Assembly (NCBI GenBank): GCA_964348665.1
Contig: CAYGDP010000023.1
Location: 1,309-65,308 of the forward strand
Origin: an uncultured Verrucomicrobiota bacterium
Lineage (GTDB): Bacteria; Verrucomicrobiota; Verrucomicrobiia; Palsa-1439; CAYGDP01
Length of the DNA stretch: 64,000 nt
Direction: 5' to 3'
The notes beneath the pieces were generated by a model. The model searched no databases. It worked only from the letters and a program-made list of their open reading frames with translations, and was not told the origin of the DNA. Below, one piece after another: positions 4,749 to 58,237 of the stretch. Every line of letters starts with the position of its first letter. Within the stretch, counting starts at the first letter, position 1. Made by a program: the position numbers and the translations under genes.

Positions 4749-5405
4749 ATGCCAAAAGAACCTCGTATTGCACGCCGTTCCCGCGCTGCCAAGCTCCTCG
4801 CTCGTCTTCGCCGCGCCTATCCCGACGCGAAATGCTCTCTCGATCATTCCAACCCTCTCCAGCTCCTCGTGGCCACCATCCTCTCTGCGCAATGCACCGA
4901 TGATCGGGTCAATATCGTCACCAAGGATTTGTTCCGGAAATATCGCAGCGCCGATGACTTTGCCAAAGCTCCACCCGGCGTTTTGGAACAGGACATTCGT
5001 TCCACCGGTTTCTACAAAAACAAAGCCCGCTCCCTCCGTGCTTGCTGCGCCGATATCGTTGCCATACACGGTGGGCGCGTTCCCGACACGATGGACGCGC
5101 TCACCGCTCTCGCTGGGGTCGGCCGCAAAACCGCCAATGTCATTCTCGCCACCGCTTTTGGCAAAGCCGAGGGGATCGCCGTGGACACGCACGTCACGCG
5201 ATTGTCGCAACGATTGGGACTGACGCGCCACACCGAGCCGGAAAAGATCGAGCGCGACTTGATGGCGCTCGTTCCCCCGCGTAATTGGGATTCACTTTCG
5301 TTGCTCCTGATCTTTCACGGCCGCCGCCGCTGCATGGCGCGCAACCCCGATTGCGAGCATTGCGAAGTGGCCGCCCTTTGCCCTAAGATTGGGGTGAAAG
5401 GATAA
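4749..5405 (+). CDS. nth: Endonuclease III (DNA glycosylase/AP lyase) with a 4Fe-4S cluster
   Basis: HhH-GPD motif 'LAGVGRKTANVIL' and a C-terminal Cys cluster 'CMARNPDCEHCEVAALCP'. Confidence 0.9.
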   Translation: MPKEPRIARRSRAAKLLARLRRAYPDAKCSLDHSNPLQLLVATILSAQCTDDRVNIVTKDLFRKYRSADDFAKAPPGVLEQDIRSTGFYKNKARSLRACCADIVAIHGGRVPDTMDALTALAGVGRKTANVILATAFGKAEGIAVDTHVTRLSQRLGLTRHTEPEKIERDLMALVPPRNWDSLSLLLIFHGRRRCMARNPDCEHCEVAALCPKIGVKG

Positions 5406-5410
5406 TAATC

Positions 5411-5881
5411 ATGCCTGACCTCCAAGAAGGCGATCTCGCCCCAGATTTTGACGCGCCTGCGACGACGGGTGGCTCTCTGAAACTTGCCGATCTGCGCGGA
5501 AAAACCGTTGTGGTTTTCTTTTTCCCGCGCGCGAACACGCCGGGTTGAACCATCGAATCGTGCGAGTTTCGCACCGCGCAGAAAAAATTTACCGACCGCT
5601 ACGCCGTCATCGTCGGCGTTAGCACCGACAAGCCCGAAGCGCAGCAGAAATTCGCGCGCCGATTCAAGCTGACGTACCCGATCGTTTCGGACGCTGAGAA
5701 GATCATCGTGAAGGCCTATGGTGTGTGGAAGCCGAAAAAATTCATGGGGCGCGAGTTCCTCGGCACACAGCGCGCCACGTTAATCATCGGACCCGACGGT
5801 CGGATCGCAAAAATCTTCCCCAAGGCAAAGGCTCTCGGCCACGCCGCCGAAGTGCTGGCGGCGCTCGATGAACTGCGCTAA
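5411..5881 (+). CDS. bcp: Bcp/PrxQ-type peroxiredoxin with an in-frame UGA (5546..5548) at the peroxidatic Cys position; predicted selenoprotein.
   Basis: ATG 5411 follows an AAGG-like spacing. The translation 'VVFFFPRANTPG-U-TIESCEF' matches the Prx T-x-x-C motif with TGA replacing Cys, and a resolving Cys lies 5 residues later. The frame stays open to TAA 5879..5881. A hairpin lies immediately downstream of the UGA. Confidence 0.75.
5549..5585 (+). promoter_or_regulatory. SECIS-like stem-loop (GTGCGA-GTT-TCGCAC at 5560..5574) beginning 11 nt after the in-frame UGA
   Basis: A perfect 6-bp inverted repeat read directly. Its nucleotide context is nearly identical to the second Sec-Prx gene (GGGTTGAAC..TCGAA.CGTGCG.GTT.CGC). 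Confidence 0.55.
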
Positions 5882-5892
5882 ACTGCGCGTGG

Positions 5893-6657
5893 ATGCATCC
5901 GATCCTCATCAAGCTCGGCAACTTCGAATTGCATTGGTACGGCCTTTTGCTGGCGCTCGGTTTTCTGGTCGGTCTCTGGACCGCCGCGCGCCGCGCTAAG
6001 AGCGCCGATATCAAGCCAGAGGTGGTCTGGGGATTGGGCACTTGGCTGATTATTGGCAGTTTGCTGGTTGCAAAAGCCTTTCACGTGGCGATTTATTTCG
6101 ATGATTATCGGCTGCATTTTGCGGAAAATCCCCTCGTTATGTTGCGATCGGGGGTCGTTTTTTATGGCGGGTTAACCGGAGGCATTGTCACCACGATTCT
6201 TTATGCGGATATGAACAAGGTTCCACTCTGGAAACTCGCCGACGTGCTTGCTCCGTCACTGGCGCTAGGGCATGCGTTTGGGCGAGTCGGTTGCTTTTTG
6301 GAGGGTTGTTGTTACGGGACACGATGCAACCTGCCATGGGCGGTGCAGTATTCCTGGGCGCATGAAACGCATCAGCAGCCGGTTCATCCCTCACAACTTT
6401 ACGAGGCAGCGGGTCTGCTGGCAATTGCGACCGCATTGCATTGGTTATTTCCAAAACGAAAGTTTGACGGCCAAGTCTGGTGGTTATATGCGCTCTTCTA
6501 TGCGTTGCTGCGGTTCAAGGTAGAGTTCTTTCGGGGTGACGTGCCGATTCATTGGTTGGGCGGCCTCGGACTCACGACCGCGCAATTCTTAAGCGCTCTG
6601 TTGCTGGTCGTCGCAGTGGTTTTTCTCGTTCGCGGTAAATTCCAGAAAACATCATGA
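5893..6657 (+). CDS. lgt: Prolipoprotein diacylglyceryl transferase
   Basis: The N-terminus 'ILIKLGNFELHWYGLLLALGFLVG' is a typical Lgt signature, in a polytopic membrane protein of ~254 aa. Confidence 0.9.
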   Translation: MHPILIKLGNFELHWYGLLLALGFLVGLWTAARRAKSADIKPEVVWGLGTWLIIGSLLVAKAFHVAIYFDDYRLHFAENPLVMLRSGVVFYGGLTGGIVTTILYADMNKVPLWKLADVLAPSLALGHAFGRVGCFLEGCCYGTRCNLPWAVQYSWAHETHQQPVHPSQLYEAAGLLAIATALHWLFPKRKFDGQVWWLYALFYALLRFKVEFFRGDVPIHWLGGLGLTTAQFLSALLLVVAVVFLVRGKFQKTS

Positions 6658-7570
6658 GTGAACGATTGACAGTCGAGTCGGCCGAGACCGGGACGCGGTT
6701 GGACCAATTCGTCCACGCGCGGCTGCCGCAGTATTCGCGCGCGTATCTCCAGAAGCTCATTCGTGAAGGTCACATTCTCGTTGGCAGTAAATCCGCTAAA
6801 CAGAATGCCAAAGTGCGCTCGGGCGACCTCGTCACCGTAGCATTTCCAGCTCCGCGCCCGCTGGAAATCGAGCCGGAAGTGATCCCGCTAAAAATTCTTC
6901 ATGAAGATCAGGATTTGCTGGTGCTAAACAAATCCCCGGGCATGGTTGTTCACCCCGGCGCGGGCAATCAACGCGGCACGTTGGTCAACGCATTGCTGGC
7001 GCACTGCGGTGCGAGTCTCTCCGGAATCGGCGGCGTGCTGCGTCCGGGCATCGTGCATCGGCTCGACAAAGACACCAGCGGGATGATGGTGGTGGCCAAG
7101 ACCGATGCGGCGCATCGCGCGCTGTCCGCGCAGTTCAAGGCGCGCACGGTGAGCAAGACGTATTTGGCGTTGGTACGCGGGAGCATGGAGCGTGACAAAG
7201 GCGTAATTTCCGCGGCGCTCGGCCGGCATCCGACGCAGAGGAAAAAAATTTCTGTCGTGACCGATGGCCGCGAAGCGCTGACCGAATACGTGGTGGAGCG
7301 ACGTTTTGCGTCCGCGACGCTCGTGCGATGTCATCCGAAGACGGGGCGCACCCATCAGATTCGAGTGCATCTGGCGAAGCTCGGTCACCCGATCATTGGC
7401 GACCGTGTATATAGCCGGAAGCAGACGATAGATGCGCCTCGGCAGATGCTTCACGCGCATCAACTCGGCTTTACGCATCCAGCGACCGGCAAATGGCTTG
7501 AGTTCACCGCGCCAATGCCGGATGATATGGAACGAATCGTGAGAGCGATGATGCGTGAGGAGCGTGAAAC

Positions 7571-7574
<4 letters not shown>
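6654..7574 (+). CDS. rluD: RluA/RluD-family 23S rRNA pseudouridine synthase with an N-terminal S4 domain
   Basis: Catalytic motif 'HRLDKDTSGMMVVAKTD'. The S4-like N-terminus and 4-nt overlaps with neighbouring genes are also read. Confidence 0.85.
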
Positions 7575-8335
<761 letters not shown>

Positions 8336-8400
8336 GCGCGGTAACATTGGTCACACGATTGGGCTTGCGCAGAGCGCACGGTGGCGATAGGAAGGAAGGC

Positions 8401-9054
8401 GTGCAAATCAAATTCATCTCCAATCTCGTGGTTGTCGTCAGTTTGATCACGCTGTCCGCCGTCATCGCGGCGGAGCCGGTCCGTGTCGCTTGCGTGGGCG
8501 ATAGCATTACCTATGGTGCCGGCGTCGACAATCGCGGTGTAAACAATTACCCGAAAGTTCTCGGCACACTGCTCGGTGAAAATTATGACGTTCGCAACTA
8601 TGGCGTGAGCGGCGCCACCCTTCTAAAAAAGGGCGACAAGCCGTACTGGGGGTTACGCGAATTTAAGGCGGTCGCGGAATTTAATCCACAGATCGTCGTG
8701 CTCAAGCTAGGCACCAACGATTCCAAGCCGCAGAACTGGAAATACAAAGAAGAGTTTGCCGACGATCTGCGCGCGATGCTCGACGCGTTTGCCAGTTTTC
8801 CCGCCAAACCGAAGGTCTGGATTTGCCTGCCCGTTCCTGTGTATCAAGACAAATGGGGCATCAACGAAGCGACCATCAAGGGTGAAGTCATCCCCGTCAT
8901 TCGGAGTGTCGCTAAGGAGAAAGGAGCGGCTACTGTTGATCTTTACACCGCCTTGACCGGGCATCCAAAGGATTTTCCAGATGGAGTGCACCCGAACGCC
9001 GCTGGAGCGGCTCTGATTGCCCAGACGGTTCACGGTGCGATTACTGGCAAATAG
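8401..9054 (+). CDS. Secreted SGNH/GDSL-family hydrolase. Likely start is GTG 8401; the track start at 7996 is an upstream over-extension.
   Basis: Signal-like N-terminus 'VQIKFISNLVVVVSLITLSAVIAA', followed by 'VACVGDSITYG' (GDS motif) and a C-terminal 'DGVHPN' (catalytic His block). Confidence 0.7.
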   Translation: MQIKFISNLVVVVSLITLSAVIAAEPVRVACVGDSITYGAGVDNRGVNNYPKVLGTLLGENYDVRNYGVSGATLLKKGDKPYWGLREFKAVAEFNPQIVVLKLGTNDSKPQNWKYKEEFADDLRAMLDAFASFPAKPKVWICLPVPVYQDKWGINEATIKGEVIPVIRSVAKEKGAATVDLYTALTGHPKDFPDGVHPNAAGAALIAQTVHGAITGK

Positions 9055-21435: not shown

Positions 21436-21568
21436 CTCTTATCGAGAGTGGCAGAGGGACTGGCCCGTTGAAGCCACAGCAACCGACCGCGCTAGCAACG
21501 TGGTGACAAGGTGCTAAATCCAGCTTGTTCGTTCCGCGATGGCGGGGCAGACAGGAAAAGATGAGAGG
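21436..21568 (+). ncRNA. SAM-I (S-box) riboswitch aptamer
   Basis: 'CTCTTATCGAGAGTGGCAGAGGGACTGGCCCGTTGAAGCCACAGCAACC...GGTGCTAAATCCAGC...AGATGAGAG' matches the S-box consensus. It has P1 (CUCUUAUC/GAUGAGAG), the kink-turn GA, P3 and the GGUGCUAAAUCC junction. Confidence 0.85.
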
Positions 21569-27099: not shown

Positions 27100-28974
27100 A
27101 TGAATGTAACAACCGAACAACTTAAAATCGTCATTGTCGGTCATGTGGATCATGGCAAGTCCACGTTCATTGGTCGTCTGTTCTACGACACGGGCGCGCT
27201 GCCCGAGGGCAAATACGAGCAGTTGGTTGCCGTCGCCAAGCGCCGCGGCGTGCCGTTCGAGTGGGCGAACTTGATGGACGGCCTCCAGGCGGAGCGCGAC
27301 CAGAACATCACGATTGACACAGCGCAGATCTGGTTTCGCACGCCGAAACGCCAGTACGTCATCATTGATGCACCCGGTCACAAGGAATTTTTGAAAAACA
27401 TGGTCACCGGCGCGGCGAACGCGGAAGCGGCGCTGCTGTTGATTGCCGCCAACGAAGGCGTGCAGGAACAATCGCGCCGCCACGGTTTTCTGCTCTCCCT
27501 GCTTGGAATTAAGCAAATCGCCGTGCTGGTCAATAAAATGGACCTCATAGGTTACAGCGAGAAAGAGTTCAAGCGGATCGAGGCAGAATACCGCGATTTT
27601 CTGACCAAAATCGGCATCACGCCTAAACTCTTTATCCCCATTGCGGCAAAAGAAGGCGAGAACGTCGCGAAAGCCTCGCTGCAGATGAAATGGTACAATG
27701 GGCCGACGGCGCTTGCCGCCCTGGACAGCTTTGAAGTTGCCGCGCCGCCACAAAATCTGCCGCTGCGGTTCCCGATCCAGGATGTTTACCGCTTCGACGA
27801 CCGTCGGATCCTCGCGGGTCGCGTTGAATCGGGTACACTCAAGGTCGGCGATAAAATACTTTTCTCGCCGCGCAACAAGCAAAGCACCATCAAGAGCATT
27901 GAAAACTGGCCGCATGGTTCTCGTCAATCGGCCAGCGCGGGCGAGAGTATCGGGATCACGCTCACCGAGCAGATTTTTGTCGAGCGCGGCCAAATTGGGT
28001 CGCTGGAAACCGATGCGCCCATCGAAACCGACGTGTTCAACGCGAAACTCTTCTGGCTTGGCCGCAAAAATCTGGAGGTCGGTCGCCGGGTAAAACTCAA
28101 GCTGAGCACCGAGGAAATTGAGTGCCAGATTCAATCCATCGAAAAACTCATTGATGCTTCGACGTTGAATGAGATTCCGCTGGGCGAACGCAAACACATA
28201 GCGCGCAACGATGTTGCCGAGATCACCATCCGCACCAAATCCCCTGTCGCGTTCGACAACTACAACCGCATCGTGCCGACCGGTCGGTTCGTCATTGTGG
28301 ACGATCGCCAGGTCTGTGGCGGGGGTGTCATCAGCAAGGGCGAATATCCCGACCGTCGCTCCGTCCTTTCAGGAGTGAAGAGCCAGAATATATCCTGGAC
28401 GGCCGCCACGGTGGATCGCGCCGCGCGCGAACGCCGCAACAAGCACAAAGGCGCGGTGCTCTGGCTGACCGGCTTTAGTGGCGCGGGCAAAAGCACCATT
28501 GCCGCCGAGCTGGAACGCGAACTCTTCCACATGGGCTTGCACACCTACGTGCTGGACGGCGACAATGTCCGCCACGGACTTAGCGCCAACCTGGGTTTTT
28601 CACCTGAAGATCGCACCGAAAACATTCGTCGCGTAGGCGAGGTTGCCAAACTCTTTGCGGATGCGGGAACGCTGGTCGTCACAGCGTTTATTTCGCCCTA
28701 TCGCGACGACCGACGCCTTGTTCGTTCGATCCTCCGGGAAGGGGAATTCATCGAGGTTCATGTCAGCGCTCCGCTCGATGTCTGTGAACAGCGCGACCCC
28801 AAAGGTCTCTACAAAAAAGCGCGCGCGGGTCAAATCCAGCATTTTACGGGAATCAGCGCGCCGTATGAGCCACCGGAAAAACCCGAACTCACCATTCACA
28901 CGGACAAACACACCGTTGCCGAATGCGTCGCGCAGATCATAGATTATCTCAAACGCGAGCATATTGAGATGTAG
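27100..28974 (+). CDS. cysNC: Bifunctional sulfate adenylyltransferase subunit 1 / adenylylsulfate kinase (CysN-CysC fusion)
   Basis: N-terminal GTPase '[14 protein letters not shown]', 'DAPGH', 'NKMD'. C-terminal APS kinase P-loop '[13 protein letters not shown]'. Confidence 0.9.
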
Positions 28975-37106: not shown

Positions 37107-37628
37107 ATGAAAACCACCATACTACTTGGAATTGTTTTTTTGATCGGCATGATGTTGCCGGCGTTTTCGGCCGATGCCCCCAAGGTGGGCGATGCAGCCC
37201 CGGAATTTACCACGACCGCCAGCGATGGCTCGACCGTATCGCTCAAGGATGCTCTGGCCAAAGGGCCGGTGGTGCTTTTCTTTTATCCCAAAGACGACAC
37301 ATCGGGTTGAACGCTCGAAGCGTGCGGGTTCCGCGACGCATACGATAACCTGAAGAAGGCAGGCGCGACCATTTGGGGCGCGAGCAATGACAGCCTCGAA
37401 TCGCACAAGTCGTTCATCGAGAAAAACAAATTGCCGTTTCTGCTCTTGGTGGATACGGATAAGATAATCTCGACCGCCTACGGCGCGGGCAGCAGTGGAT
37501 ACCCCAAGAGAATCACCTTCATCATCGGCAAAGACGGGAAAGTTGCCTACAGCAATCTCAACGTGAACGCCAACATCAAGGGGCATGCATCGGAAATTGT
37601 CCGGGAGTTAGAAAAGCTGGCGAAGTAA
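37107..37628 (+). CDS. bcp: Second Bcp/PrxQ-type peroxiredoxin with in-frame UGA (37308..37310) at the peroxidatic position; predicted periplasmic selenoprotein.
   Basis: Signal peptide 'MKTTILLGIVFLIGMMLPAFSA'. 'VVLFFYPKDDTSG-U-TLEACGF' with TGA at the Cys position. The same frame (37107 and 37431 are both mod 3 = 0) is open through to TAA 37626..37628. The track shows it as two fragments. Confidence 0.75.
37311..37345 (+). promoter_or_regulatory. SECIS-like stem-loop (GCGTGCGG-GTT-CCGCGAC with one bulge) immediately 3' of the second in-frame UGA
   Basis: Sequence context is ~80% identical at the nucleotide level to 5549..5585, including at synonymous positions. Confidence 0.5.
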
Positions 37629-37710
37629 TTGGAGACCAGTGCCCGGAGATGAGAGATTGGGTATTCGGACTTCGTGCTGCGAATTTCGAGTTTCCCGCGT
37701 TTTGGGGATG

Positions 37711-37794
37711 TGCCGGCGGAGGGAATCGAACCCACACGCCCTTTCGGGCACTGGATTTTGAGTCCAGCGCGTCTGCCAATTCCGCCACACCGGC
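37711..37794 (-). tRNA. tRNA-Leu (anticodon CAA), class II with a long variable arm. CCA is not encoded.
   Basis: The reverse complement reads GCCGGTG...CTGGA-CTCAAAA-TCCAG...TGCCCGAAAGGGCG...GGTTCGATTCC...CGCCGGCA. It has a 7-bp acceptor stem, anticodon loop CUCAAAA, T-loop TTCGATT. Confidence 0.8.
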
Positions 37795-47542: not shown

Positions 47543-50500
47543 TTAAGCTTGCGTTACGGCTTTGGCAAGGTTGGAAACGATATCGTTGTGGATAAGCGCG
47601 AGGTGGAGAGGGGAATTGGCTGTGGCAGATTCCGGCAATGGCGGTGCTATAAACTGAAACTGTGCAGGTAAGAGGTTGATCACATTTGCGAATCCCGAGC
47701 CCCTTTGTAAAGTAGTCACGCCGTCGGCTTCGGCGACTTTCCCGAGCTTTACCGAGCCAGTGAGGGTGCTGCTTTGAGGCACTACATTCGATAGTTGCAG
47801 CTCTTGGACTTCGCCATTAGTCTGCATGGTTAGACGCATCAAGCCTCCACCTTTCAGTGTTAGGGCAACTGAGTCGCGATTGCTATCGCTGTACTTGATT
47901 TTTGTGCCGAGGCCTAGAATGATGCCGAAGTTTCCACCTGCAACAAAATCGCCAGAAGGAAAGGAACCACCAAATTCTCCGTCGAGCCGGTCTCCTTCGA
48001 TATCAGTGACCGAATCGAGAATTGAGTAACGGATGAGACGACCTTGCTTGATCGTTTTCAAGGGGGTTAGAGTTACGGTACGCGCAGTAGGGTCATAGGT
48101 GATTGTGGCTATAGCCGTGGCGATATCATCGGCAGTTCCTAGCAGCTTATCGGTTCCCGCATTAAACACCCCGAAGTTGAAAGGGTTTTGGGCAGTTGCG
48201 GGATCGAGTGCTTCGCTGAAACGAATTACTACTTTGCTTATGTTTTTCTTTGCAGTAAGAAAATCCACAGCGACGAGAAACGGTCCGGTATCTACGATGT
48301 TAGCAGTTGCGTCGGTAGAATTATTGGTTAGGTTCGGATCAATTTCCCCTGCTTGAACTTGTGCTGTAAAAGACAGATCTCCTTCTTCCGTCGGAATGAG
48401 GGTGAGGCTAATATCGGACGAATTACCGGCGGTTACAGTACCCATATTGCAGGTGACCACTGAACCAATTGAATTGCATAATACAGATGGAGTTGAAGAA
48501 AGAAAGGTCAGGGTCGTTGGCAATACTGCCAAAAACTCCACAGACAAGCCGGGTTCTGGTCCGCTGTTTTGGACGTGGAATGAGTACGTAACGGGCGCTC
48601 CCACGCGGCTTGGACTGGGAGGCACCATTACAGCCAGGGCGAGATCGGATACCGCGTCCGTGTCCGCCATCTGGAGAATAGGCACTACACGGATTTGCCC
48701 TGTCGCCAGGAAACCACTCGACTCCGCTCCAAACTCTTTGTCGTTCAATTGGGCTACTACTTGGACGAGATGGTCACTGTTGAGACCGGTCAGTTGAAGC
48801 TCGAACGGCATATCCACGGGATTCGGTAGCCAACCGATGCCATCTTCGTTGCCCATATAGAAACTTCCGGGTATTTCGGTCAGAACACCAGTGGCAGAGC
48901 TGTATCCCAATCGTCTGCCGACCGCATCCACCAAAAATCCCTCGACCGGATCGAAGAAAACTGTGAGGAATGACCTCAGAACGGTGAGTCCGGCGGTGGC
49001 TGTTGAATTGAGCAAGTTGGATGAAAATGGATCGCCTTGAATAGTTAGCCCCAATTGGATCATGATACGACTCTGCACATCCAGATTGGAGACCATTCCC
49101 GTGTGCGTAACATCTGTAAACCGTGCTTCTTCTAGCTTGGGGTTGGTTGGGAACAAACCTGCAGCCGAAATGGTTGGAACCGTTTCGTCTCCGCTGTTTG
49201 TAGCTGTGATATCATCGAAAAACACTGTGCTGAAACTTAGAACGGGGTTACTGATTATGTCGGTAAACGGCAACACACAGCACCCCGGACCTGTTTTTTG
49301 CTCGACCTCGGTTGGAGTTTCTTGACCGGTCCCGATTACATTCAGGATCGATCCAAGAATGTTGTCGAGAACAAGCTGCGGTCCACCGTTTGCATTGAGA
49401 TCTAGCAATAAGCTGTTACGGTCGGCCGGCCGATCATTGACGTCTACAACTGTGTCGCCAATTCTCAAGAATGGATAGGTTGCCAGCAAGGCTCGTATGG
49501 TAGGAACGTATTTTTCAATAAAAAGAATAGGGTCGGGTTCTTGAGTTGTTGGATTTGTGATGGATACTATTGTAATATCTTCGTCTGTACCATCGATTGT
49601 TTCACCTTCCAGAACTTTCTCGTAGGCGTGATTAATGATTTTGGAAAAGACGAACCGATTGGTAGAGTCAAAATTCCAGTTGTCATGGAGCGGGTTCCAT
49701 GCTTTCGAAGCGCCGAGGTTTGGCACACCTAGCATAATAAAGTTCCGCACCCGAGGCAGGTTTACCGTCTCGCCAGAGGAAAGCACAAATTCACCCCCGT
49801 AGCCATCACTCTGGAAATAAGAACGGGAAACAAGTCCGCCAGTACTGTGGGAAATGATATTGACCTCTTCGAGCGGTTCGGACGGAAATCGCGCGTGCCA
49901 TGATTGCACCGCTTGTTTCAACCAAAACCCGAGATAATCCATACCAAAGACAAACTGGTCGGCAGTGATGTCTATTGCAGAACGAGTGATCGTGCCGTCC
50001 TGTGCCGCTTCGATTGGTCCCGGCAGGAGCCTCCAGTCGTAATTTGCGGAGAAGATGTCAAAATTATCCGTGTAACCTATATTTCGGAAGGTTTGAATCA
50101 AATCATCATAGACTCGCAAAAGCGGATCGATCAGCAGATCTTCGGGACGGACACCGCGATGTCGAAGCCAAAACGGATACTCGCTGGAGCGAGGGAAGGT
50201 CGCACCGATGCCAGGAACAATCAGCACTGGGGCGCGCGGTGGGCTGAACTCGGACGTGTTACCATCAGGATCAATAGCAGTGGCAGATATAAATTCATCA
50301 GAAACTAATTCAACACCAAAATTCAGCGAAAAAGTTACCGTCCCATCGTCGTCAGTAAGTTGAACCGTTGATCCTAGGAAACGGGATGAACCCCCTTGAT
50401 TGTTTGTATCAGCAGATTGAATGGCAAACACCTCAATCGTATAGGCAGTGTTGGGAGCGCTCTCGAGGAGCCATCGAGTTTCAGTCAGTCCCGGTGACTG

Positions 50501-52939
50501 GCGGATTTGTGTCAAAACAGGAAAATTCTGCTGGAGATTGGAATCGAGATCGGCGTCCAGTGGGTCATTATCAGTACGTCCGTCCCCTCCCAAGTCAATG
50601 CGCATCAGCTCGTTGGAGAAGATGCGATTACGAGTGATCAGATTTCGATTGCCGAACTGGACAACGACACCTTCCGCTTGATTGAATGCGATACTATTTG
50701 CGGCTCCGTCTTCGGTCCCGCCGACGGTGTTCAAACTTGCGCCTTCACCAATAAAAATACCAGGGCCGATATTTCCCAGCGGTGATAGGCCATTGAGTTG
50801 GATGCCAATGAAGTTACCTTGGAGGAAATTGTTAGTTGCGCTCGCGCCGATAATCTTTATACCACCCATTCCGTTTGATGAAATCACGTTGCGAGAGCCT
50901 GAAACTGTGCCGCCGATGAAGTTTTCAGGAGCATTTTCGATAACCACACCTCCAGCTTCATTTTGGAGGTCGGATGTGCCAGTGGCATTCGTGCCGATGA
51001 GATTGCCTAGCACGACATTACCGCTAGCATCGGCGCCGAAAATCAGGACGCCAATCTCCTGATTGCCAGCAATGACGTTACCAGATTGGGAAGCAATTCC
51101 ACCAATGGTATTATTCGGTGCGCCATTTATCGAGATGCCTAGCCGGTTGCTCAAGGGAAGATTCCCTTCATTATCGGTGCCGATATAATTGTTCGATACC
51201 AGATTTCCACTGGCAGTATTGCCTTGGATTACCACGCCGAATAATTCATTGCCGGAAATTACGTTGCTGACAATTGCTGCGTTGCCTCCAATCGAGTTCC
51301 CGGAAGACTCTTCGATTCTTACCCCGTCACCGCTATTTCCCAAGTCCATCTCACCGGTCGGATTAGTTCCAATAAAATTGCCATGCACGACATTCCCAGT
51401 GGCGAGGTCGCCTCGGATCTCCACACCGCTTCCTTTGTTGCCTGAGATCGTGTTGGTGGAGCTCAGAGATCCTCCACCAATCGTATTGTGGGGCGCATTG
51501 GAAATGAAGACGCCGTCCATATTGTTTGGCAAGATGGCAACTGCAGGCGAGTCGCCAGCGATAACGAAATCTGTCTGTCCCACGTTGATTCCCAAGTAAT
51601 TCCTCTGAATAAGATTTCCTGTCGCTGATCCACCGACGATTTCGATTCCATGCTGGTCGTTTCCGGAAATCAGATTGCCAGACCGAAGCGCAGTTCCTCC
51701 GATGGTGTTGTTTGGTGCGTTGCCAATGATAATACCGGACAGGGAATTACCACGGTCGATCGTTCCCGACGAGTCTGTTCCAATGAAATTCCCCATGATT
51801 ACATTCGCACCGGTCTGTGTTCCAGTAATGAAGACGCCTGCTTCGAGATTACTCGAGATAATATTTCCTGCTCCCGCCTCGACTCCCCCAATAGTGTTGT
51901 TGACAGCCGATTCACCCAGTCGTACACCGCTAAAGTGATTGGGCAATGGGTCATTCCCATTCAAACTCAAGCCGATCCAGTTTCCCATCACCTTATTGCC
52001 GAACGCATCGTTGTGTATTCCAACGCCGTTGGCAAAATTGCCGGCGATCAAGTTACGCAACTGGGAATCAGCTCCACCGACAGTGTTGTTATTGGCTGTG
52101 TCTATATGCACACCGTCAAAACCATTTCCAATTGGTTGTGTTCCCAAAATATTTATTCCCACCAGGTTGCCAACCACCACGTTGCTGTTCCCTTCGATAA
52201 TCTCGATTCCGCTCTCGCCATTACCCGAGATCAGGTTTCGAGCTGCGGGAACTGCTCCGCCAATCGTATTATTGTCCGAGACCACGAGAACGCCAACCCC
52301 ACCATTTCCACGATCCTGAGCGCCAGTAATATCGGTCCCAATGTAGTTACCATGGACAGTATGCCCACCACTTCCAAACAACAGTATACCTGCCCCGCCA
52401 AAGCGGTTGATGACCAAACCCGTCACGGTACTACTACTGCCCGAAAGAGCCAATCCTGTCGGGGTCGGTACATCCAGGATGGCTGACCCATCCAGCTCGA
52501 TGATCGGCGTGACATTGAATCCCGGCTGGGTCTGGCCGTCAATTAACACAGGTTGGCTAACGGTCGGTAATAGGCTCAACGGGCGAATGGTCTGCTGGCC
52601 TGTAGCGATGCTAAATTCGATGGTGTCGAGAAATCCATCTGCATTGGCTTCCTGAATCGCTGCCCTCAATGTACAGATATTGCTTGGAGGAATGGGCGGT
52701 TCTGCTTCAGGATTACTAGCCGTATCGCAAATCCCATCCCCGAGTAAGCTGTCGCCTAAATCGGCTGTGGAATTTACTGTAAAGATAGAGGGTGTTGCAC
52801 GATTTTCCAACCACTCGGCCACCAAAACTACGGAACTGATGGATGTTTGTGAACTAGGACACTCGGTCCGCGTACTTGGAAACGGCTTGCCTCTCCGCTT
52901 CGCAGCACGTCGCCTTCGAAATAGGGTTTGCCAATTCAC
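47543..52939 (-). CDS. Giant secreted multidomain protein (1798 aa). It has a PVC-type N-terminus with a CSLREA-like motif, about 25 right-handed parallel beta-helix repeats, an alpha/beta-hydrolase lipase-like domain (GHSxG), and C-terminal DUF11/Ig-like repeats.
   Basis: 'LENRATPS...TVNSTAD...CTLRAAIQEAN'. Numerous 'N.IGG../GN...GI' repeats. 'IISHSTGGLVSR' nucleophile elbow. 'TYSFHVQNSGPEPGLSVEFLAVLPTTLTFLSS' DUF11-like. GC is lower than in neighbours. Confidence 0.8.
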   Translation of the reverse strand: MNWQTLFRRRRAAKRRGKPFPSTRTECPSSQTSISSVVLVAEWLENRATPSIFTVNSTADLGDSLLGDGICDTASNPEAEPPIPPSNICTLRAAIQEANADGFLDTIEFSIATGQQTIRPLSLLPTVSQPVLIDGQTQPGFNVTPIIELDGSAILDVPTPTGLALSGSSSTVTGLVINRFGGAGILLFGSGGHTVHGNYIGTDITGAQDRGNGGVGVLVVSDNNTIGGAVPAARNLISGNGESGIEIIEGNSNVVVGNLVGINILGTQPIGNGFDGVHIDTANNNTVGGADSQLRNLIAGNFANGVGIHNDAFGNKVMGNWIGLSLNGNDPLPNHFSGVRLGESAVNNTIGGVEAGAGNIISSNLEAGVFITGTQTGANVIMGNFIGTDSSGTIDRGNSLSGIIIGNAPNNTIGGTALRSGNLISGNDQHGIEIVGGSATGNLIQRNYLGINVGQTDFVIAGDSPAVAILPNNMDGVFISNAPHNTIGGGSLSSTNTISGNKGSGVEIRGDLATGNVVHGNFIGTNPTGEMDLGNSGDGVRIEESSGNSIGGNAAIVSNVISGNELFGVVIQGNTASGNLVSNNYIGTDNEGNLPLSNRLGISINGAPNNTIGGIASQSGNVIAGNQEIGVLIFGADASGNVVLGNLIGTNATGTSDLQNEAGGVVIENAPENFIGGTVSGSRNVISSNGMGGIKIIGASATNNFLQGNFIGIQLNGLSPLGNIGPGIFIGEGASLNTVGGTEDGAANSIAFNQAEGVVVQFGNRNLITRNRIFSNELMRIDLGGDGRTDNDPLDADLDSNLQQNFPVLTQIRQSPGLTETRWLLESAPNTAYTIEVFAIQSADTNNQGGSSRFLGSTVQLTDDDGTVTFSLNFGVELVSDEFISATAIDPDGNTSEFSPPRAPVLIVPGIGATFPRSSEYPFWLRHRGVRPEDLLIDPLLRVYDDLIQTFRNIGYTDNFDIFSANYDWRLLPGPIEAAQDGTITRSAIDITADQFVFGMDYLGFWLKQAVQSWHARFPSEPLEEVNIISHSTGGLVSRSYFQSDGYGGEFVLSSGETVNLPRVRNFIMLGVPNLGASKAWNPLHDNWNFDSTNRFVFSKIINHAYEKVLEGETIDGTDEDITIVSITNPTTQEPDPILFIEKYVPTIRALLATYPFLRIGDTVVDVNDRPADRNSLLLDLNANGGPQLVLDNILGSILNVIGTGQETPTEVEQKTGPGCCVLPFTDIISNPVLSFSTVFFDDITATNSGDETVPTISAAGLFPTNPKLEEARFTDVTHTGMVSNLDVQSRIMIQLGLTIQGDPFSSNLLNSTATAGLTVLRSFLTVFFDPVEGFLVDAVGRRLGYSSATGVLTEIPGSFYMGNEDGIGWLPNPVDMPFELQLTGLNSDHLVQVVAQLNDKEFGAESSGFLATGQIRVVPILQMADTDAVSDLALAVMVPPSPSRVGAPVTYSFHVQNSGPEPGLSVEFLAVLPTTLTFLSSTPSVLCNSIGSVVTCNMGTVTAGNSSDISLTLIPTEEGDLSFTAQVQAGEIDPNLTNNSTDATANIVDTGPFLVAVDFLTAKKNISKVVIRFSEALDPATAQNPFNFGVFNAGTDKLLGTADDIATAIATITYDPTARTVTLTPLKTIKQGRLIRYSILDSVTDIEGDRLDGEFGGSFPSGDFVAGGNFGIILGLGTKIKYSDSNRDSVALTLKGGGLMRLTMQTNGEVQELQLSNVVPQSSTLTGSVKLGKVAEADGVTTLQRGSGFANVINLLPAQFQFIAPPLPESATANSPLHLALIHNDIVSNLAKAVTQA

Positions 52940-53999: not shown

Positions 54000-55505
54000 C
54001 TACTGCTTCGGGATTTGATTGAGCGTGTAATAGGCGGCGGGGTGGAGGAGGGGAGCGCCGTTGGAGGAGCGGATGCCAGGGAATTTGAATTCGTGGACGT
54101 GTCCTTCCACTAGCCCTTCGATTTCGAGTCGCGCGCTTAATTTATCTGCGGCAACGGTGACGCTCTTGACTGTCGGTTTGGTCTTGTCCACTTCCGGGCT
54201 GCCATAATCCTTCTGGTATTTGTAGGTGTATGACTCGACCGTGTAGGACGCTGGATCGATCACCGTGGCCGGGTCAACGGGTTCGGTGAAGACCAATTCG
54301 AATCCGTTTGGTTTGGCGCGCATTTCCAGGATCTCGAAAGGGGTTTTGCCCGTCCAGACGAGCCGCTGGAGCGCATACGGTTTGCCGCCGCGCGCGCCCC
54401 AGCCGCGGTCGGTGCCGAAGACAAAAAGTGAGTTGTCCGGCGCGAATTCCGCCGCGAGACTGCCGGAGTCGAACCCGGCGCGGAACGGGAAACAGACGCC
54501 TTGATAGCGGTCGTTGATTTTTTCGAGGAAGACGCGCATCACCGTCGAGTGCGTTTGGTCGGGCACGAAGAGCTGTTCTTTGAACGGGCCAAACTTGCCT
54601 TTGGTCAGGTCGCACGCAACGCCTCCGGCGGATTGTCCCATTTTGTTGTAGGGAAAATAGACAGCAGGCGGCAAGAGTTCGGGAATCCGTTTTGCTTCCT
54701 CGTAGAGACGGCTGCCAGTATTTGGCCGCTCCGGTTTTTTGAGTCCCACTGCGGCGACTTCGTCTTTGGTGGCGGGATCTTCAAACCAGCGATATCCATC
54801 CGGGTGACCGACGAAAGCGCCTTGTTTGATTTGCTGCAATTTGCAGGTGCCGTTCCATGGCCCCTGATTATCGGTGTAAAAAATATCGCCAGCCGCGTTG
54901 AAGCCAATGCCACCGGGAGAGCGGACCCCGACGCAGAACGGAGTCATTTTGCCATCGGGAGCGACTTTCACGCTCCAGCCGCGATAGGGAACTTCGCTGG
55001 TAAACGAACCTGTCAGACATAGGACCAGATACATATTGCCAGCGCGGTCGAACTTGGAGCCGAATGCGTACTCGTGATAATCGCCACCGGTGCCCCAGCC
55101 ATCGCTGTATGTTTCGAGAACGTCGGCGCGTCCATCGTTGTTGGTGTCTTTGAGCCGGGTGACCTCGCTTCGCTGCGTGGCATAAAGCCAGCCATCGCGC
55201 CACGCGAGACCGAGGACCTCGTGCAAACCGCGTGCGAACAATGTCCATTTAGGATTTGGCGACTCGCCGAGCACGCCCTCGGCAATCCAGATGTCGCCAA
55301 TGCGCGTCGAACAAGCCAGTTTATCGGGGCCGATGAACTGCAACGCGCCCGACTCAAACTGCACGTTGGTCGGTGTCGGCAACGTGATCATCCGATAGAA
55401 ATCTTTTTCTTGGTCGGGTGGTTTGTCGCCGCCTTTCCGGTCGTCGGCTCGCGCGACAGTCGCAATGAATGCGATAATCAGAATGAGATGGATTGGATTT
55501 ACCAC
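54000..55505 (-). CDS. Putative membrane-bound dehydrogenase domain protein of the PVC type (glucose/sorbosone-dehydrogenase-like beta-propeller)
   Basis: Signal/TM N-terminus, then a beta-propeller-like region. It overlaps the 3' end of the upstream CxxCH gene by 7 nt, the usual pairing for this family. Confidence 0.7.
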   Translation of the reverse strand: MVNPIHLILIIAFIATVARADDRKGGDKPPDQEKDFYRMITLPTPTNVQFESGALQFIGPDKLACSTRIGDIWIAEGVLGESPNPKWTLFARGLHEVLGLAWRDGWLYATQRSEVTRLKDTNNDGRADVLETYSDGWGTGGDYHEYAFGSKFDRAGNMYLVLCLTGSFTSEVPYRGWSVKVAPDGKMTPFCVGVRSPGGIGFNAAGDIFYTDNQGPWNGTCKLQQIKQGAFVGHPDGYRWFEDPATKDEVAAVGLKKPERPNTGSRLYEEAKRIPELLPPAVYFPYNKMGQSAGGVACDLTKGKFGPFKEQLFVPDQTHSTVMRVFLEKINDRYQGVCFPFRAGFDSGSLAAEFAPDNSLFVFGTDRGWGARGGKPYALQRLVWTGKTPFEILEMRAKPNGFELVFTEPVDPATVIDPASYTVESYTYKYQKDYGSPEVDKTKPTVKSVTVAADKLSARLEIEGLVEGHVHEFKFPGIRSSNGAPLLHPAAYYTLNQIPKQ

Positions 55506-58237
55506 GAGAGTTCCTCCGCAAATTTTGCTTCCTTTTTGTTGAACACGACCGGGACAAGCAATTCGGTTTGATTGCCGCTGGCGCGAAGGGTCGCTTTCAC
55601 GCCCGTGATCTTGATTCGCACCTTACCATCTACCAAGTAACTGTCGCCTTTTTCTTCAATCTTTGCGGCGGCGGCAGCGCGGAAAAAGAGATTTGCCGGC
55701 GACTTTTCGGACCGCACCGTGACGGTGCGCTTGAATACCGCGTCGTCACCCATCGGCACGGCCACAAAATAATCCTCCACCTGCACGTCGCCAAAGGTAT
55801 ATCTGAACGTCGGACGAAGTTTGTCATCGAGGTTGTAGCCGCGAAATTGATAGCCGGCTTTTCTTCCAGTATCGGCTGGCCATGGCGCGTCGGTGGTGGT
55901 AAGCGACGCGAACGGCGCGCCGGGAGTCCACTTGACCTGCGCATACCCGAGTGGCGGTTGAAATCCATCGCCGCGACCGCTCCGGTGTTTCGATGCGTCC
56001 ATGAATGGGCCTTGCCAGAGCAAGGCGACCCGGATTTCGTGGGCGTCAAACGCGAGGTTCAGTTTTTCGGGATATCCGACAGCGATGGCGCGCGCGCCCG
56101 CGCCTTGGATCCAGTGACGATAAATCTGGGTTTCTTTGTCGGCAACGAGTTCTTGTTTCGCCGCGATGAGGCCGACGGGAATATCAGCGCTTTTCCCTTT
56201 GGAGAGGTACGACCAGAGTGCGGCGATTTGTTTCTCGGTGTTGCCATTGAGAATATCTTCGCGCACCGCTTTGCCATTGGGCCAAAAACTGGGCATCCGT
56301 GTGCCCGGCCGCAAAGAGATCGGGTCGAGCAAATAGCGTCGAAACCACGCGCCTTCCAGTCGCTCGTAGACTGTGGTGAGATCGAGGGCTGGAACGCCGA
56401 GCGACGGGCGGCCGGCGAAGACGTGGCACTGGACGCACGAAAGTCCGCCGGTACCAGTAAGTTTATGGCCGGCTTTCGCCAGCGTGTCGTCCACGGCGAG
56501 TTCCGTGGCAGGCGTGCTTGCTGTGTCCGCCTTGGCGAACGCGGCGACCAGATGTTTTACGTTGGCTTGTCCAAACTGCGGCATTCGAGTGGCCATATAT
56601 GGTCGCACGCTGGCGCCTTGCCAAAGCGCGCGCTCCATCCATCCCGGTTTCAGTTTTACGCCGACTCCATCGAGGTGGGGCGGCATCCGGCCTTCGTCGC
56701 CGAGGTCGGCGTCAACAGCGGTCGTGAAAAACTCCGATCGCAAACCGGCTGGTCCACCGCGTTTGCCACGGCTGTGGCAAGCATAGCAATTGAGTACCGT
56801 CATCGTGCGCGCGACTTGCTCGGCATCGGTAAGCGGCTGTGAGAGCGCGGCGAGATTGGTCAATTGCGAGCTAAGGTCGGTTCTCTGGCGGTCGGTGAAC
56901 GCATATTTTGGCGCTGCAGCAGGCGGCGTGGATGAGAGACAACCCTTCGAACCCGCGAGTTGAAGAAGAGGCATGGTTTTCTTGCCGGGGACATCAATAG
57001 GATGGCATGCGGCACAGTTGAGGCTGGTGAAAAGTTCTTTGCCTTTAGCAGCTTTCGCTTCGTCAACGGTGAATGGCGCGTCATCAAGCGGTCGCATCGG
57101 TTGGCCTTCGTGCGACAACACGCGCGCTGGGATTTCGTTTTTGTTGATCCCCGGTCCTTTCCACGATACTTTGAACGCGTCGCCGCCACCCCCTTGGAAG
57201 AAGGTTGCAGTGATTGTGTGTTCCCCCACGGGGAGCTTTACTTTGCCATCGCGTTCCTGTTCAGGGTGGATGCCTCCGTTGTCCACAACGAGCTTTTCGT
57301 CCACGTACAGGCGTGAACCGTCGTCGGACATCGTGTAAAACGTGTAATCGCCTGCTTTTGCGATTGTGAGGATGCCGCGGAATCGCAAGGCATAGTCGTT
57401 CTTCCGCTGTGCGACAGCGAGCGTGAATTTTTCGGTGGTGCCGGTCGCTTTCGGCTTGAGACGGTCGAACTCCGGTAATTCGGGGAATGACGCCTCGTAG
57501 TATTCGTAGGCGAGACCCTCGAGTTTGGTCGGCTCGCCACCAACCACTTGTTCGCGCAATAAATACATCGCAATGGCCCGCGATTCGCCCTCGTCGAGTT
57601 TCAGAGAAGGCATTCGTCCGGAGGACCGGGTCTTGACCGGGTCCCGGAGGAATGCGGCAAGTTCATTGACGGTGAATTTGCGCGCGAGATCGCCAAGAGG
57701 GATAGAGTCGCGTTGCAGGCGGTTCATCTCGGATTTGGTGGCATTGTCATTGGGAGCGACGGGCGGCGATTCGTGCGGCGTATGGCACGCGACGCACCCG
57801 AGGGTGTGATACAATTTTTTGCCCGCCGCTATCGCAGCGGTGCTCGCCCCGTGTTGCACGCCCGTATCCGGCGATTGGAACGAAACGAGGTACTGGGTGA
57901 GTGCTTCGGCGGCTTCTGCTTTTTCGGCTCCCGGAAGCGAGTGGAGCAAGTCAGGCATTGTCGGGCCGGGTTTGACGAGGAACGCGCGCAGCCATTGCGG
58001 AGTCAATTGTAAACCGTCCTTGCCGAGGCGCGGCGCTTGCCGGGAGGCGAGCCGATTTTTGATCGCGCCTGGCGCATCGTGGCATGCGACGCAGTTCATC
58101 TCAGCGAGGACAAACTCGCCAGGAGCGACGTCGGAATGTGCCGGGAGTAGTAGTGCGAACCCAAGGAAAGGCACGAGAGAGAATATGCGATTCATCGGCG
58201 TCAAGATTAGCTCCGGATGAAACCACAGTGGCGACAA
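55499..58237 (-). CDS. PVC-type multihaem protein with five CxxCH motifs and a PA14 domain
   Basis: CVACH x2, CAACH, CYACH, CVQCH are read directly. The PA14-like 'ILTIAKAGDYTFYTMSDDGSRLYVDEKLVVDNGG'. Confidence 0.8.
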   Translation of the reverse strand: MSPLWFHPELILTPMNRIFSLVPFLGFALLLPAHSDVAPGEFVLAEMNCVACHDAPGAIKNRLASRQAPRLGKDGLQLTPQWLRAFLVKPGPTMPDLLHSLPGAEKAEAAEALTQYLVSFQSPDTGVQHGASTAAIAAGKKLYHTLGCVACHTPHESPPVAPNDNATKSEMNRLQRDSIPLGDLARKFTVNELAAFLRDPVKTRSSGRMPSLKLDEGESRAIAMYLLREQVVGGEPTKLEGLAYEYYEASFPELPEFDRLKPKATGTTEKFTLAVAQRKNDYALRFRGILTIAKAGDYTFYTMSDDGSRLYVDEKLVVDNGGIHPEQERDGKVKLPVGEHTITATFFQGGGGDAFKVSWKGPGINKNEIPARVLSHEGQPMRPLDDAPFTVDEAKAAKGKELFTSLNCAACHPIDVPGKKTMPLLQLAGSKGCLSSTPPAAAPKYAFTDRQRTDLSSQLTNLAALSQPLTDAEQVARTMTVLNCYACHSRGKRGGPAGLRSEFFTTAVDADLGDEGRMPPHLDGVGVKLKPGWMERALWQGASVRPYMATRMPQFGQANVKHLVAAFAKADTASTPATELAVDDTLAKAGHKLTGTGGLSCVQCHVFAGRPSLGVPALDLTTVYERLEGAWFRRYLLDPISLRPGTRMPSFWPNGKAVREDILNGNTEKQIAALWSYLSKGKSADIPVGLIAAKQELVADKETQIYRHWIQGAGARAIAVGYPEKLNLAFDAHEIRVALLWQGPFMDASKHRSGRGDGFQPPLGYAQVKWTPGAPFASLTTTDAPWPADTGRKAGYQFRGYNLDDKLRPTFRYTFGDVQVEDYFVAVPMGDDAVFKRTVTVRSEKSPANLFFRAAAAAKIEEKGDSYLVDGKVRIKITGVKATLRASGNQTELLVPVVFNKKEAKFAEELSW

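Follow-up and report, generated by a model that had tools for sequence, protein, structure and literature searches.

Does an in-frame TGA at the catalytic position of a peroxiredoxin gene end the protein, or is it read as selenocysteine (Sec)? The question is raised by two genes, here called prxA and prxB, in a stretch of 64,000 nucleotides from an uncultured Verrucomicrobiota bacterium (contig CAYGDP010000023.1 of assembly GCA_964348665.1, positions 1,309 to 65,308 of the forward strand; this whole stretch is referred to as the window, and its own numbering is used throughout). An initial annotation of the window had proposed that both genes encode Sec and that each carries a hairpin of the kind expected of a bacterial selenocysteine insertion sequence (SECIS). 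Our results lead us to regard prxA and prxB as very likely atypical 2-Cys peroxiredoxins of the Bcp/PrxQ type in which Sec would take the place of the peroxidatic cysteine, and our confidence in this reading is higher for prxB than for prxA.

5411..5881, + strand: prxA, cytoplasmic Bcp/PrxQ-type peroxiredoxin of 156 amino acids with predicted Sec at residue 46 (translation, Pfam and PDB alignments)
5546..5548, + strand: TGA of prxA, predicted Sec codon (codon 46), in the peroxidatic Cys column of the alignments
5561..5563, + strand: TGC of prxA, codon of the resolving Cys (residue 51), within the 5' arm of the hairpin; invariant column
37107..37628, + strand: prxB, Bcp/PrxQ-type peroxiredoxin precursor of 173 amino acids with predicted Sec at residue 68 (translation, Pfam and PDB alignments)
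37107..37169, + strand: predicted signal peptide of prxB, MKTTILLGIVFLIGMMLPAFS, with cleavage near AFS/A (judged from hydropathy and the start of homology)
37308..37310, + strand: TGA of prxB, predicted Sec codon (codon 68), in the peroxidatic Cys column of the alignments
37323..37325, + strand: TGC of prxB, codon of the resolving Cys (residue 73), within the 5' arm of the hairpin; invariant column

In both genes the TGA is the sole internal stop, in the context FFFPRANTPG-stop-TIESCEFR in prxA and FFYPKDDTSG-stop-TLEACGFRD in prxB. With Cys or X put in place of this stop for profile searches against Pfam and NCBIfam, PF00578 (AhpC-TSA, cutoff 26 bits) matched residues 7-134 of prxA (E 6.8e-35, 120.1 bits) and residues 27-148 of prxB (E 4e-37, 127.3 bits), in each case across the TGA. 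Alignments to Bcp structures in the PDB gave E 7e-31 for prxA and 3.8e-33 for prxB, whose best match is 3drn Bcp and whose TGA falls on the peroxidatic Cys (Ser in mutant structures). In an alignment of 14 sequences, including twelve full-length homologues, the TGA column is the invariant peroxidatic Cys, C(P), of TPGC-TxExC; P39, T43, G45 and R121 (prxA numbering) are invariant as well, and so is the Cys at +5 from C(P), the resolving Cys, C(R), of atypical 2-Cys Bcp proteins, which is C51 in prxA and C73 in prxB. The nearest full-length relatives of prxA carry Cys and share 63% identity with it. Translation, Pfam, PDB and the 14-sequence alignment together bear out the initial annotation in its placing of two genes at these coordinates, each with a single TGA at the peroxidatic position and a resolving Cys retained five residues later, and the comparison with Cys-containing Bcp/PrxQ homologues that it had suggested as a check puts U in the C(P) column. 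It had named homologues that end or begin at the TGA position as grounds for doubt; this is not the case, as Bcp homology runs across the TGA in both genes.

The top NCBIfam models for prxA and prxB are Bcp/PrxQ thiol peroxidases, and PRK09437, with an equivalog cutoff of 140 bits, gave 135 for prxA, which is just short of it, and 93 for prxB; judged by these profiles, Bcp/PrxQ membership is secure at the level of the family and not at that of the equivalog. The two had been described as paralogous, which holds insofar as they belong to the same family, but with identity of 40% in protein and 54% in DNA they are, because of the low protein figure, distant members of it and not close paralogues. 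In prxB, the second residue is Lys and is followed by a stretch of 13 residues with a mean Kyte-Doolittle hydropathy of 2.98, and Bcp homology begins only at residue 26; because of these features and the AFS/A site, the protein probably carries a signal peptide and would be exported to the periplasm. Signal-bearing Sec-Bcp genes like prxB also occur in Planctomycetota loci (L035, L048, L062 and L092 of the scan described below).

The claim that standard gene callers and the list of open reading frames (ORFs) split or miss both genes proved correct. Public gene calls on the same contig end at the TGA, leaving stubs of 45 (prxA) and 67 (prxB) amino acids, and no + strand ORF of at least 100 amino acids was found in the mechanical ORF list at either prx site. 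The only ORF of that length listed at the prxB locus is antisense (37122-37586, - strand, 154 amino acids) and covers nearly the whole of prxB; that it is a gene is very improbable, though an annotator could call it instead of prxB.

The TGA recurs at the same place elsewhere. One genome per species was scanned with a DNA pattern that specifies the protein motif only (P-x3-T-x-G-TGA-T-x-E-x-C-x-F-R), and at least 120 loci in species-representative genomes carry the TGA, where we estimate that about one match would arise by chance. The figures given below for TGA genes cover the matches listed from these loci (n = 119 distinct, n = 117 aligned). Because the C-x-F-R-D motif forces much of the nucleotide sequence, a control set was needed, which consists of 122 Cys genes with the identical pattern but TGY in place of TGA. 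Among the matches listed, nearly all continue 3' of the TGA in an open frame of about 100-115 Bcp codons, and a few are cut by the locus end or stop earlier. The matches listed come from Acidobacteriota, Gemmatimonadota, Rokubacteria, Myxococcota (including Anaeromyxobacter), relatives of Syntrophobacter and Geobacter, Planctomycetota, Dehalococcoidia, Acidimicrobiales and others. BLAST of prxA and prxB against the Sec set and against the Cys set gave similar scores, with about 42-54% identity in both. One locus (L094) holds two Sec-Bcp matches (834 and 4921, - strand) within 8 kb; two-copy genomes are not unique to the window.

Downstream of the TGA, each gene can form a short hairpin, numbered here with the U of UGA as +1.

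5560..5574 (+15..+29), + strand: SECIS-like hairpin of prxA, GUGCGA-GUU-UCGCAC, 6 base pairs, GUU loop at +21..+23, minimum free energy -7.7 kcal/mol
37320..37339 (+13..+32), + strand: SECIS-like hairpin of prxB, GCGUGCGG-GUU-CCGC-(G)-ACGC, 8 base pairs, bulged G at +28, GUU loop at +21..+23, minimum free energy -12.5 kcal/mol

A stem-loop 11 nucleotides after the UGA had been claimed for both genes; this is exact for prxA, while the hairpin of prxB begins 9 nucleotides after the UGA and its upper stem 13 nucleotides after. The prxB form is the commonest in the family, with 8 of the 8 pairs of the family structure formed, and over +10..+36 it matches an Acidobacteriota gene (L024) in every nucleotide. 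In prxA, Thr (ACC) replaces the near-invariant Asp of FRD, whereby the bulge is lost and a continuous stem of 6 base pairs results; its closing pair A20-U24 is a compensatory alternative to G-C, and 9 other family members have A-U. Both genes thus have a stem of at least 6 base pairs and a G at +21.

The likeness of the two genes around the TGA is real but was somewhat overstated. The initial annotation gave about 80% identity for the 35 nucleotides downstream; strictly after the TGA it is 24/35 (69%), whereas the consensus span reaches 26/31 and the most similar 35-nucleotide stretch of the two genes (28/35) spans the TGA. That the identity extends to wobble positions was confirmed, with third codon positions equal in 7 of the 9 codons after U against 47 of 131 elsewhere. 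From the codon usage of the window, the joint probability of the wobble choices that the hairpin needs was calculated as ~0.005 for prxB and ~0.017 for prxA. Much of what prxA and prxB share in nucleotides is forced by T-x-E-x-C-x-F-R, and the real signal is found in the wobble positions, the loop positions and the lower stem. Compared with dinucleotide shuffles, neither fold alone is better (z = -0.11 for prxA and -0.65 for prxB), and single-sequence folding with shuffles gave z of +0.3 to -0.65 overall, a method that cannot judge short GC-rich hairpins. Because single folds do not beat shuffles, the significance of the hairpins comes only from the comparison across the family.

This comparison separates TGA genes from Cys genes clearly. 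A stem of at least 6 base pairs in register with a G at +21 is present in 76 of the 119 TGA genes and in 1 of the 122 TGY genes, which upholds the SECIS-like nature that had been proposed for the GUU-loop hairpins, placed as they are at the distance of a bacterial SECIS. The full 8 base pairs with a GU loop are found in 66/119 TGA genes against 1/122 TGY genes (Fisher 7.5e-25), the apical 4-base-pair stem in 82/119 against 27/122, and the mean minimum free energy of +9..+42 is -11.9 in TGA genes and -7.6 kcal/mol in TGY genes (p = 3e-18). Within the identical CGFRD context, the Gly codon is GGG in 69 of 74 TGA genes but in only 5 of 33 TGY genes (p = 9e-16), and GGG makes up only 15% of Gly codons in the window. 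In the same context, Gly stands at the fourth position after the peroxidatic residue (CP+4) in 36/74 Sec genes and in 0/33 Cys genes; since the residue at CP+4 tracks the RNA, it is RNA structure that shapes the protein here. The paired positions also covary, as pair 14-31 occurs as C-G in 51 sequences and as G-C in 41 (ungapped alignment, 117 sequences) and the observed score was reached in 0 of 500 shuffles. With G28 bulged, paired cells make up 80.5% of the total, and sliding the partners lowers this to 23-54% (117 sequences); a bulge-free register, tried on the family alignment, was rejected, its covariation being no greater than that of shuffles, and the register with the bulge is the one supported.

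Not every member of the family uses this structure, and about a third of those listed have other hairpins. One alternative, GGAAA-GCUGCCA-UUUCC, starts from about +9 in Acidimicrobiales and relatives (L007, L008, L019, L020, L055, L056 and L099); another, GCGAYUUC-CGUGAY-GARRUCGC, lies at +17..+38 (L022, L023, L044, L064, L070, L071 and L082). Since at least two further hairpin types follow the UGA, the SECIS seems to have been reinvented or remodelled within this one protein family. In several Sec genes (e.g., L039 and L066), +5..+9 pairs with +36..+40, and the long lower helix that results extends nearly as far as the UGA; the Thr codon directly after the UGA is ACG in 63/119 listed Sec genes and 29/122 Cys genes.

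Several observations weigh against reading the two TGA codons as Sec, and they are best considered together. The prxA hairpin is minimal, with its 6 base pairs, and is no better than shuffled sequence when taken alone. A search for a TGA-bearing close orthologue of prxA, made with the 45-residue prxA stub, returned the stub alone. When the window was searched with a covariance model (R1) built from 86 Sec-gene segments (+10..+36) from outside the window, prxA ranked fourth, with 10.7 bits and E about 1, and in a control search with the same model Cys homologues scored 20-36 bits (Cys loci L126-L225, e.g., L180:2139-2165 and L183:2629-2655). Finally, selA, selB, selD and tRNA-Sec were not found in the 64 kb window, as the initial annotation had stated, nor in the flanks read of the 68 kb contig.

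As for R1 itself, prxB was its only significant match in the window (37.6 bits, E 2e-8). Scores of 20-36 bits for Cys homologues show that what the model chiefly picks up is the coding motif; it was discounted and rejected as SECIS evidence, as it neither separates Sec from Cys genes nor lends independent support. Rfam, searched at the gathering score on the window and by E-value threshold on 5400-5900, gave no match at either prx site, which is uninformative; we know of no general bacterial SECIS model in Rfam. The simple family rule of a TGA followed by a stem of at least 6 base pairs with a G at +21 separates Sec from Cys genes far better than the covariance model does.

It is also conceivable that the UGA is decoded, but not as Sec. 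The Sec pathway can put Cys at UGA if sulfide replaces selenide, and the amino acid that is inserted is not readable from a gene sequence, so that near-cognate read-through (Trp or Cys), or Cys-tRNA(Sec) under scarce selenium, might yield a working enzyme that is a thiol peroxidase. A specific, covarying hairpin with a SelB-type G-U loop at a fixed distance is, however, what Sec decoding requires and would be needless for plain read-through, and for Cys a direct codon would do, which is what most homologues have. We therefore consider decoding as another amino acid very unlikely.

Alternatively, both genes might be pseudogenes or recent nonsense mutants, as a single change turns TGC into TGA, and only the N-terminal stubs would be made. 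The gene callers report just such stubs, the window shows no Sec machinery and the hairpin of prxA, taken by itself, is weak, all of which would fit. Yet two genes of 40% identity would both have been struck at one catalytic codon and have suffered no other lesion in 156 and 173 codons, the wobble positions after the TGA are conserved between them, and both have the hairpin with G at +21 that is found in a single gene of the Cys control set. Because at least 120 species carry the identical TGA at this catalytic codon, as do two genes here, an accident of mutation is disfavored, and we regard it as very unlikely.

An organism-wide reassignment of UGA to a sense codon comes to mind because the contig is from Verrucomicrobiota, a phylum in some members of which UGA has been reassigned to Trp according to one paper (PMC13462651). 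In the window, however, more called genes end in TGA than in any other stop codon (26/54), no other called gene with an in-frame TGA or a plausible read-through continuation was found, the GC content is 55%, and Trp or Gly at the peroxidatic position would abolish catalysis. Because TGA ends 26 of 54 genes and no other read-through is seen, we take the genetic code to be standard and the two prx genes to be special, and give reassignment hardly any credence. A sequencing or assembly error at both codons is likewise scarcely credible, since records of ENA, Logan and NCBI contain four window proteins with unchanged sequence, encoded on contigs some 68 kb long, two ENA assemblies, Logan assemblies and an NCBI record recovered the contig independently of one another, the TGA stubs were called in ERZ27247830 (prxA) and ERZ27247820 (prxB), and the TGA stands at the same codon in at least 120 other genomes.

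If the two UGA codons are indeed read as Sec, a ribosome translating either gene would meet the UGA with a short hairpin 9-11 nucleotides downstream, whose apical loop would present G-U and whose stem overlaps the codons of the resolving Cys and of the x-F-R-(D/T) residues that follow. SelB with Sec-tRNA(Sec) would bind this hairpin, and Sec would be inserted in place of termination. The machinery for this, encoded by selA, selB, selC and selD, would lie elsewhere in the genome. In the mature enzyme, the selenolate would attack the peroxide and become a selenenic acid, which the Cys five residues on would resolve to a selenenylsulfide, and a thioredoxin-type reductant might then regenerate the enzyme.

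How such genes arise may be connected with the codons of the active site. Of the 122 Cys genes, 27 already have a latent 4-base-pair apical stem and 9 have a stem of 6 base pairs or more, and this latent apical stem of the C-x-F-R-D codons may explain repeated conversion to Sec in the Bcp family. We tentatively speculate, without regarding it as the likelier course of events, that the Bcp C(R)-x-F-R codons form a latent hairpin at the right distance that has allowed repeated conversion of Cys to Sec, that prxA represents a recent conversion peculiar to its own lineage, on a deep branch of the Verrucomicrobiota, with a minimal 6-base-pair SECIS whose stem became continuous through the change of Asp to Thr, and that prxB was separately derived and is exported.

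prxA and prxB are not a new kind of selenoprotein but two additions to a family that has been known for about twenty years. In the Sargasso Sea selenoproteome, "Peroxiredoxin (Prx), COG1225, TXXU" was, with 43 genes, the second most abundant known family (PMC1088965). Zhang et al. (2006) described 12 bacterial Sec-Prx and five Cys-to-Sec conversions, among them three Sec-Prx of Anaeromyxobacter (PMC1794560); Peng et al. (2016) listed 91 Prx proteins from 78 organisms (PMC5029168), and reviews of 2022 and 2026 include Prx (COG1225 Bcp / PF00578, TxxU) (PMC9312934, PMC13188914). As far as can be judged from sequence, prxA and prxB have all the defining features of this prokaryotic family: the same fold and subfamily, a predicted Sec at the peroxidatic position of P-x3-T-x-x-U, and, following the UGA, a SECIS-type hairpin whose apical loop contains a G. 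Published Sec-Prx lineages (Anaeromyxobacter, Syntrophobacter and Geobacter relatives) are also among the matches listed from our scan. Unlike the listed Sec-Prx, our two genes come from sparsely sampled Verrucomicrobiota, are mutually distant (40%), and one of them has a predicted signal peptide; prxA differs further in its Thr for the conserved Asp of FRD and in its shorter hairpin without a bulge.

PrxU of Eubacterium acidaminophilum (NF040737, peroxi_PrxU) has been shown by experiment to be a thioredoxin-dependent peroxiredoxin with peroxidatic Sec, which prxA and prxB resemble in their predicted peroxidatic Sec; their CP-x4-CR arrangement is of the Bcp type, unlike that of PrxU. Assignment to the PrxU equivalog was rejected (33.5 bits for prxA and 46.2 for prxB against a cutoff of 270), PrxU being another Prx subfamily. 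Cys-containing Bcp/PrxQ proteins (Escherichia coli Bcp; Xanthomonas campestris BCP, 3gkk and 5iiz; Burkholderia, 5enu; Sulfolobus, 3drn) have full-length homology to prxA and prxB (E 7e-31 and 4e-33) and agree with them in active-site motif, in the conserved Arg and in having a resolving Cys at +5, but they have TGY where prxA and prxB have UGA, and their DNA lacks the G at +21 with the lower stem (full feature set in 1/122). The Prx-like thiol:disulfide oxidoreductase selenoproteins (UxxC/UxxU) and Prx-SUH (NF045827) have, like prxA and prxB, an AhpC-TSA/thioredoxin fold with Sec in a redox motif; this motif is CxxC-like, in contrast to the TxxU peroxidatic site of our two genes, and Prx-SUH was rejected as an assignment at 23.9 bits against a cutoff of 298.

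The SECIS of E. coli fdhF is the model bacterial SECIS, with the loop G-U at +23/+24. It resembles the prx hairpins in lying within the coding region, in an upper stem-loop about 11 nucleotides after the UGA and in its apical G-U, which is at +21/+22 in prxA and prxB. The prx hairpins differ in their sequence and in an apical loop of 3 nucleotides (5 if the closing pair opens), and their binding by SelB is a prediction. prxA has no bulge, and the bulge of prxB is a G on the 3' side, not a U on the 5' side as in fdhF.

The two genes would imply that Sec decoding operates in this poorly sampled Verrucomicrobiota lineage and that one of its selenoenzymes is sent to the periplasm. All named matches by GyrB are Verrucomicrobiota metagenome-assembled genomes, and identity is at most 68% except for one relative at 85%; for this reason we regard the source lineage as sparsely sampled. 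The practical gain is a corrected annotation, while knowledge of selenoproteins is unchanged. Automated calls in the species genomes, at least 120 in number, that carry the TGA probably truncate the gene too, gene calls having been checked on this contig. If truncation is general, antioxidant capacity and selenium dependence would be underestimated for phyla of soil and fresh water, for example Acidobacteriota, Gemmatimonadota, Rokubacteria and the Planctomycetota/Verrucomicrobiota group. Further selenoprotein candidates were looked for in the window and none was found.

prxA starts 5 nucleotides past the stop of nth, which encodes endonuclease III, and a likely ribosome-binding site lies within the nth end.

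4749-5405: nth (endonuclease III)
5397..5402, + strand: AAAGGA, likely ribosome-binding site, 8 nucleotides 5' of the prxA ATG, with a putative function

prxA is probably co-transcribed with nth, and co-transcription with DNA-repair genes would suit a role in oxidative stress. The same-strand run 4749-9054 (+) comprises nth, prxA, lgt, a pseudouridine synthase gene and a UDG-family gene; within it, the peroxidase gene stands between two genes of base-excision repair. Near prxB, tRNA-Leu(CAA), the sole tRNA in the window, lies at 37710-37794 (-), about 80 nucleotides 3' of the prxB stop.

Elsewhere in the window, a SAM riboswitch (RF00162, 77.6 bits) at 21436-21567 (+) stands 5' of a sulfur-assimilation cluster that reaches about 28974 and encodes a PALP enzyme, ThiS, an ankyrin-repeat protein, a NIL domain protein, two PAPS_reduct proteins and a fused CysN/CysC; the ankyrin-repeat gene is unusual within such a cluster. 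The GTP_EFTU protein at 27100-28974 was considered as SelB and rejected, as it is the fused CysN/CysC (GTP_EFTU plus APS kinase). At 47543-52939 (-) lies the gene of a protein of roughly 1760-1800 amino acids with a CLIPPER domain, and at 55499-58237 (-) that of a 900-residue PA14 protein with faint cytochrome c matches, beside a neighbour with a weak DUF7133 match; the CLIPPER-domain and PA14 proteins give the impression of typical Planctomycetota/Verrucomicrobiota genes. More ankyrin-repeat proteins are encoded near the window end, at 62873-64044 (+).

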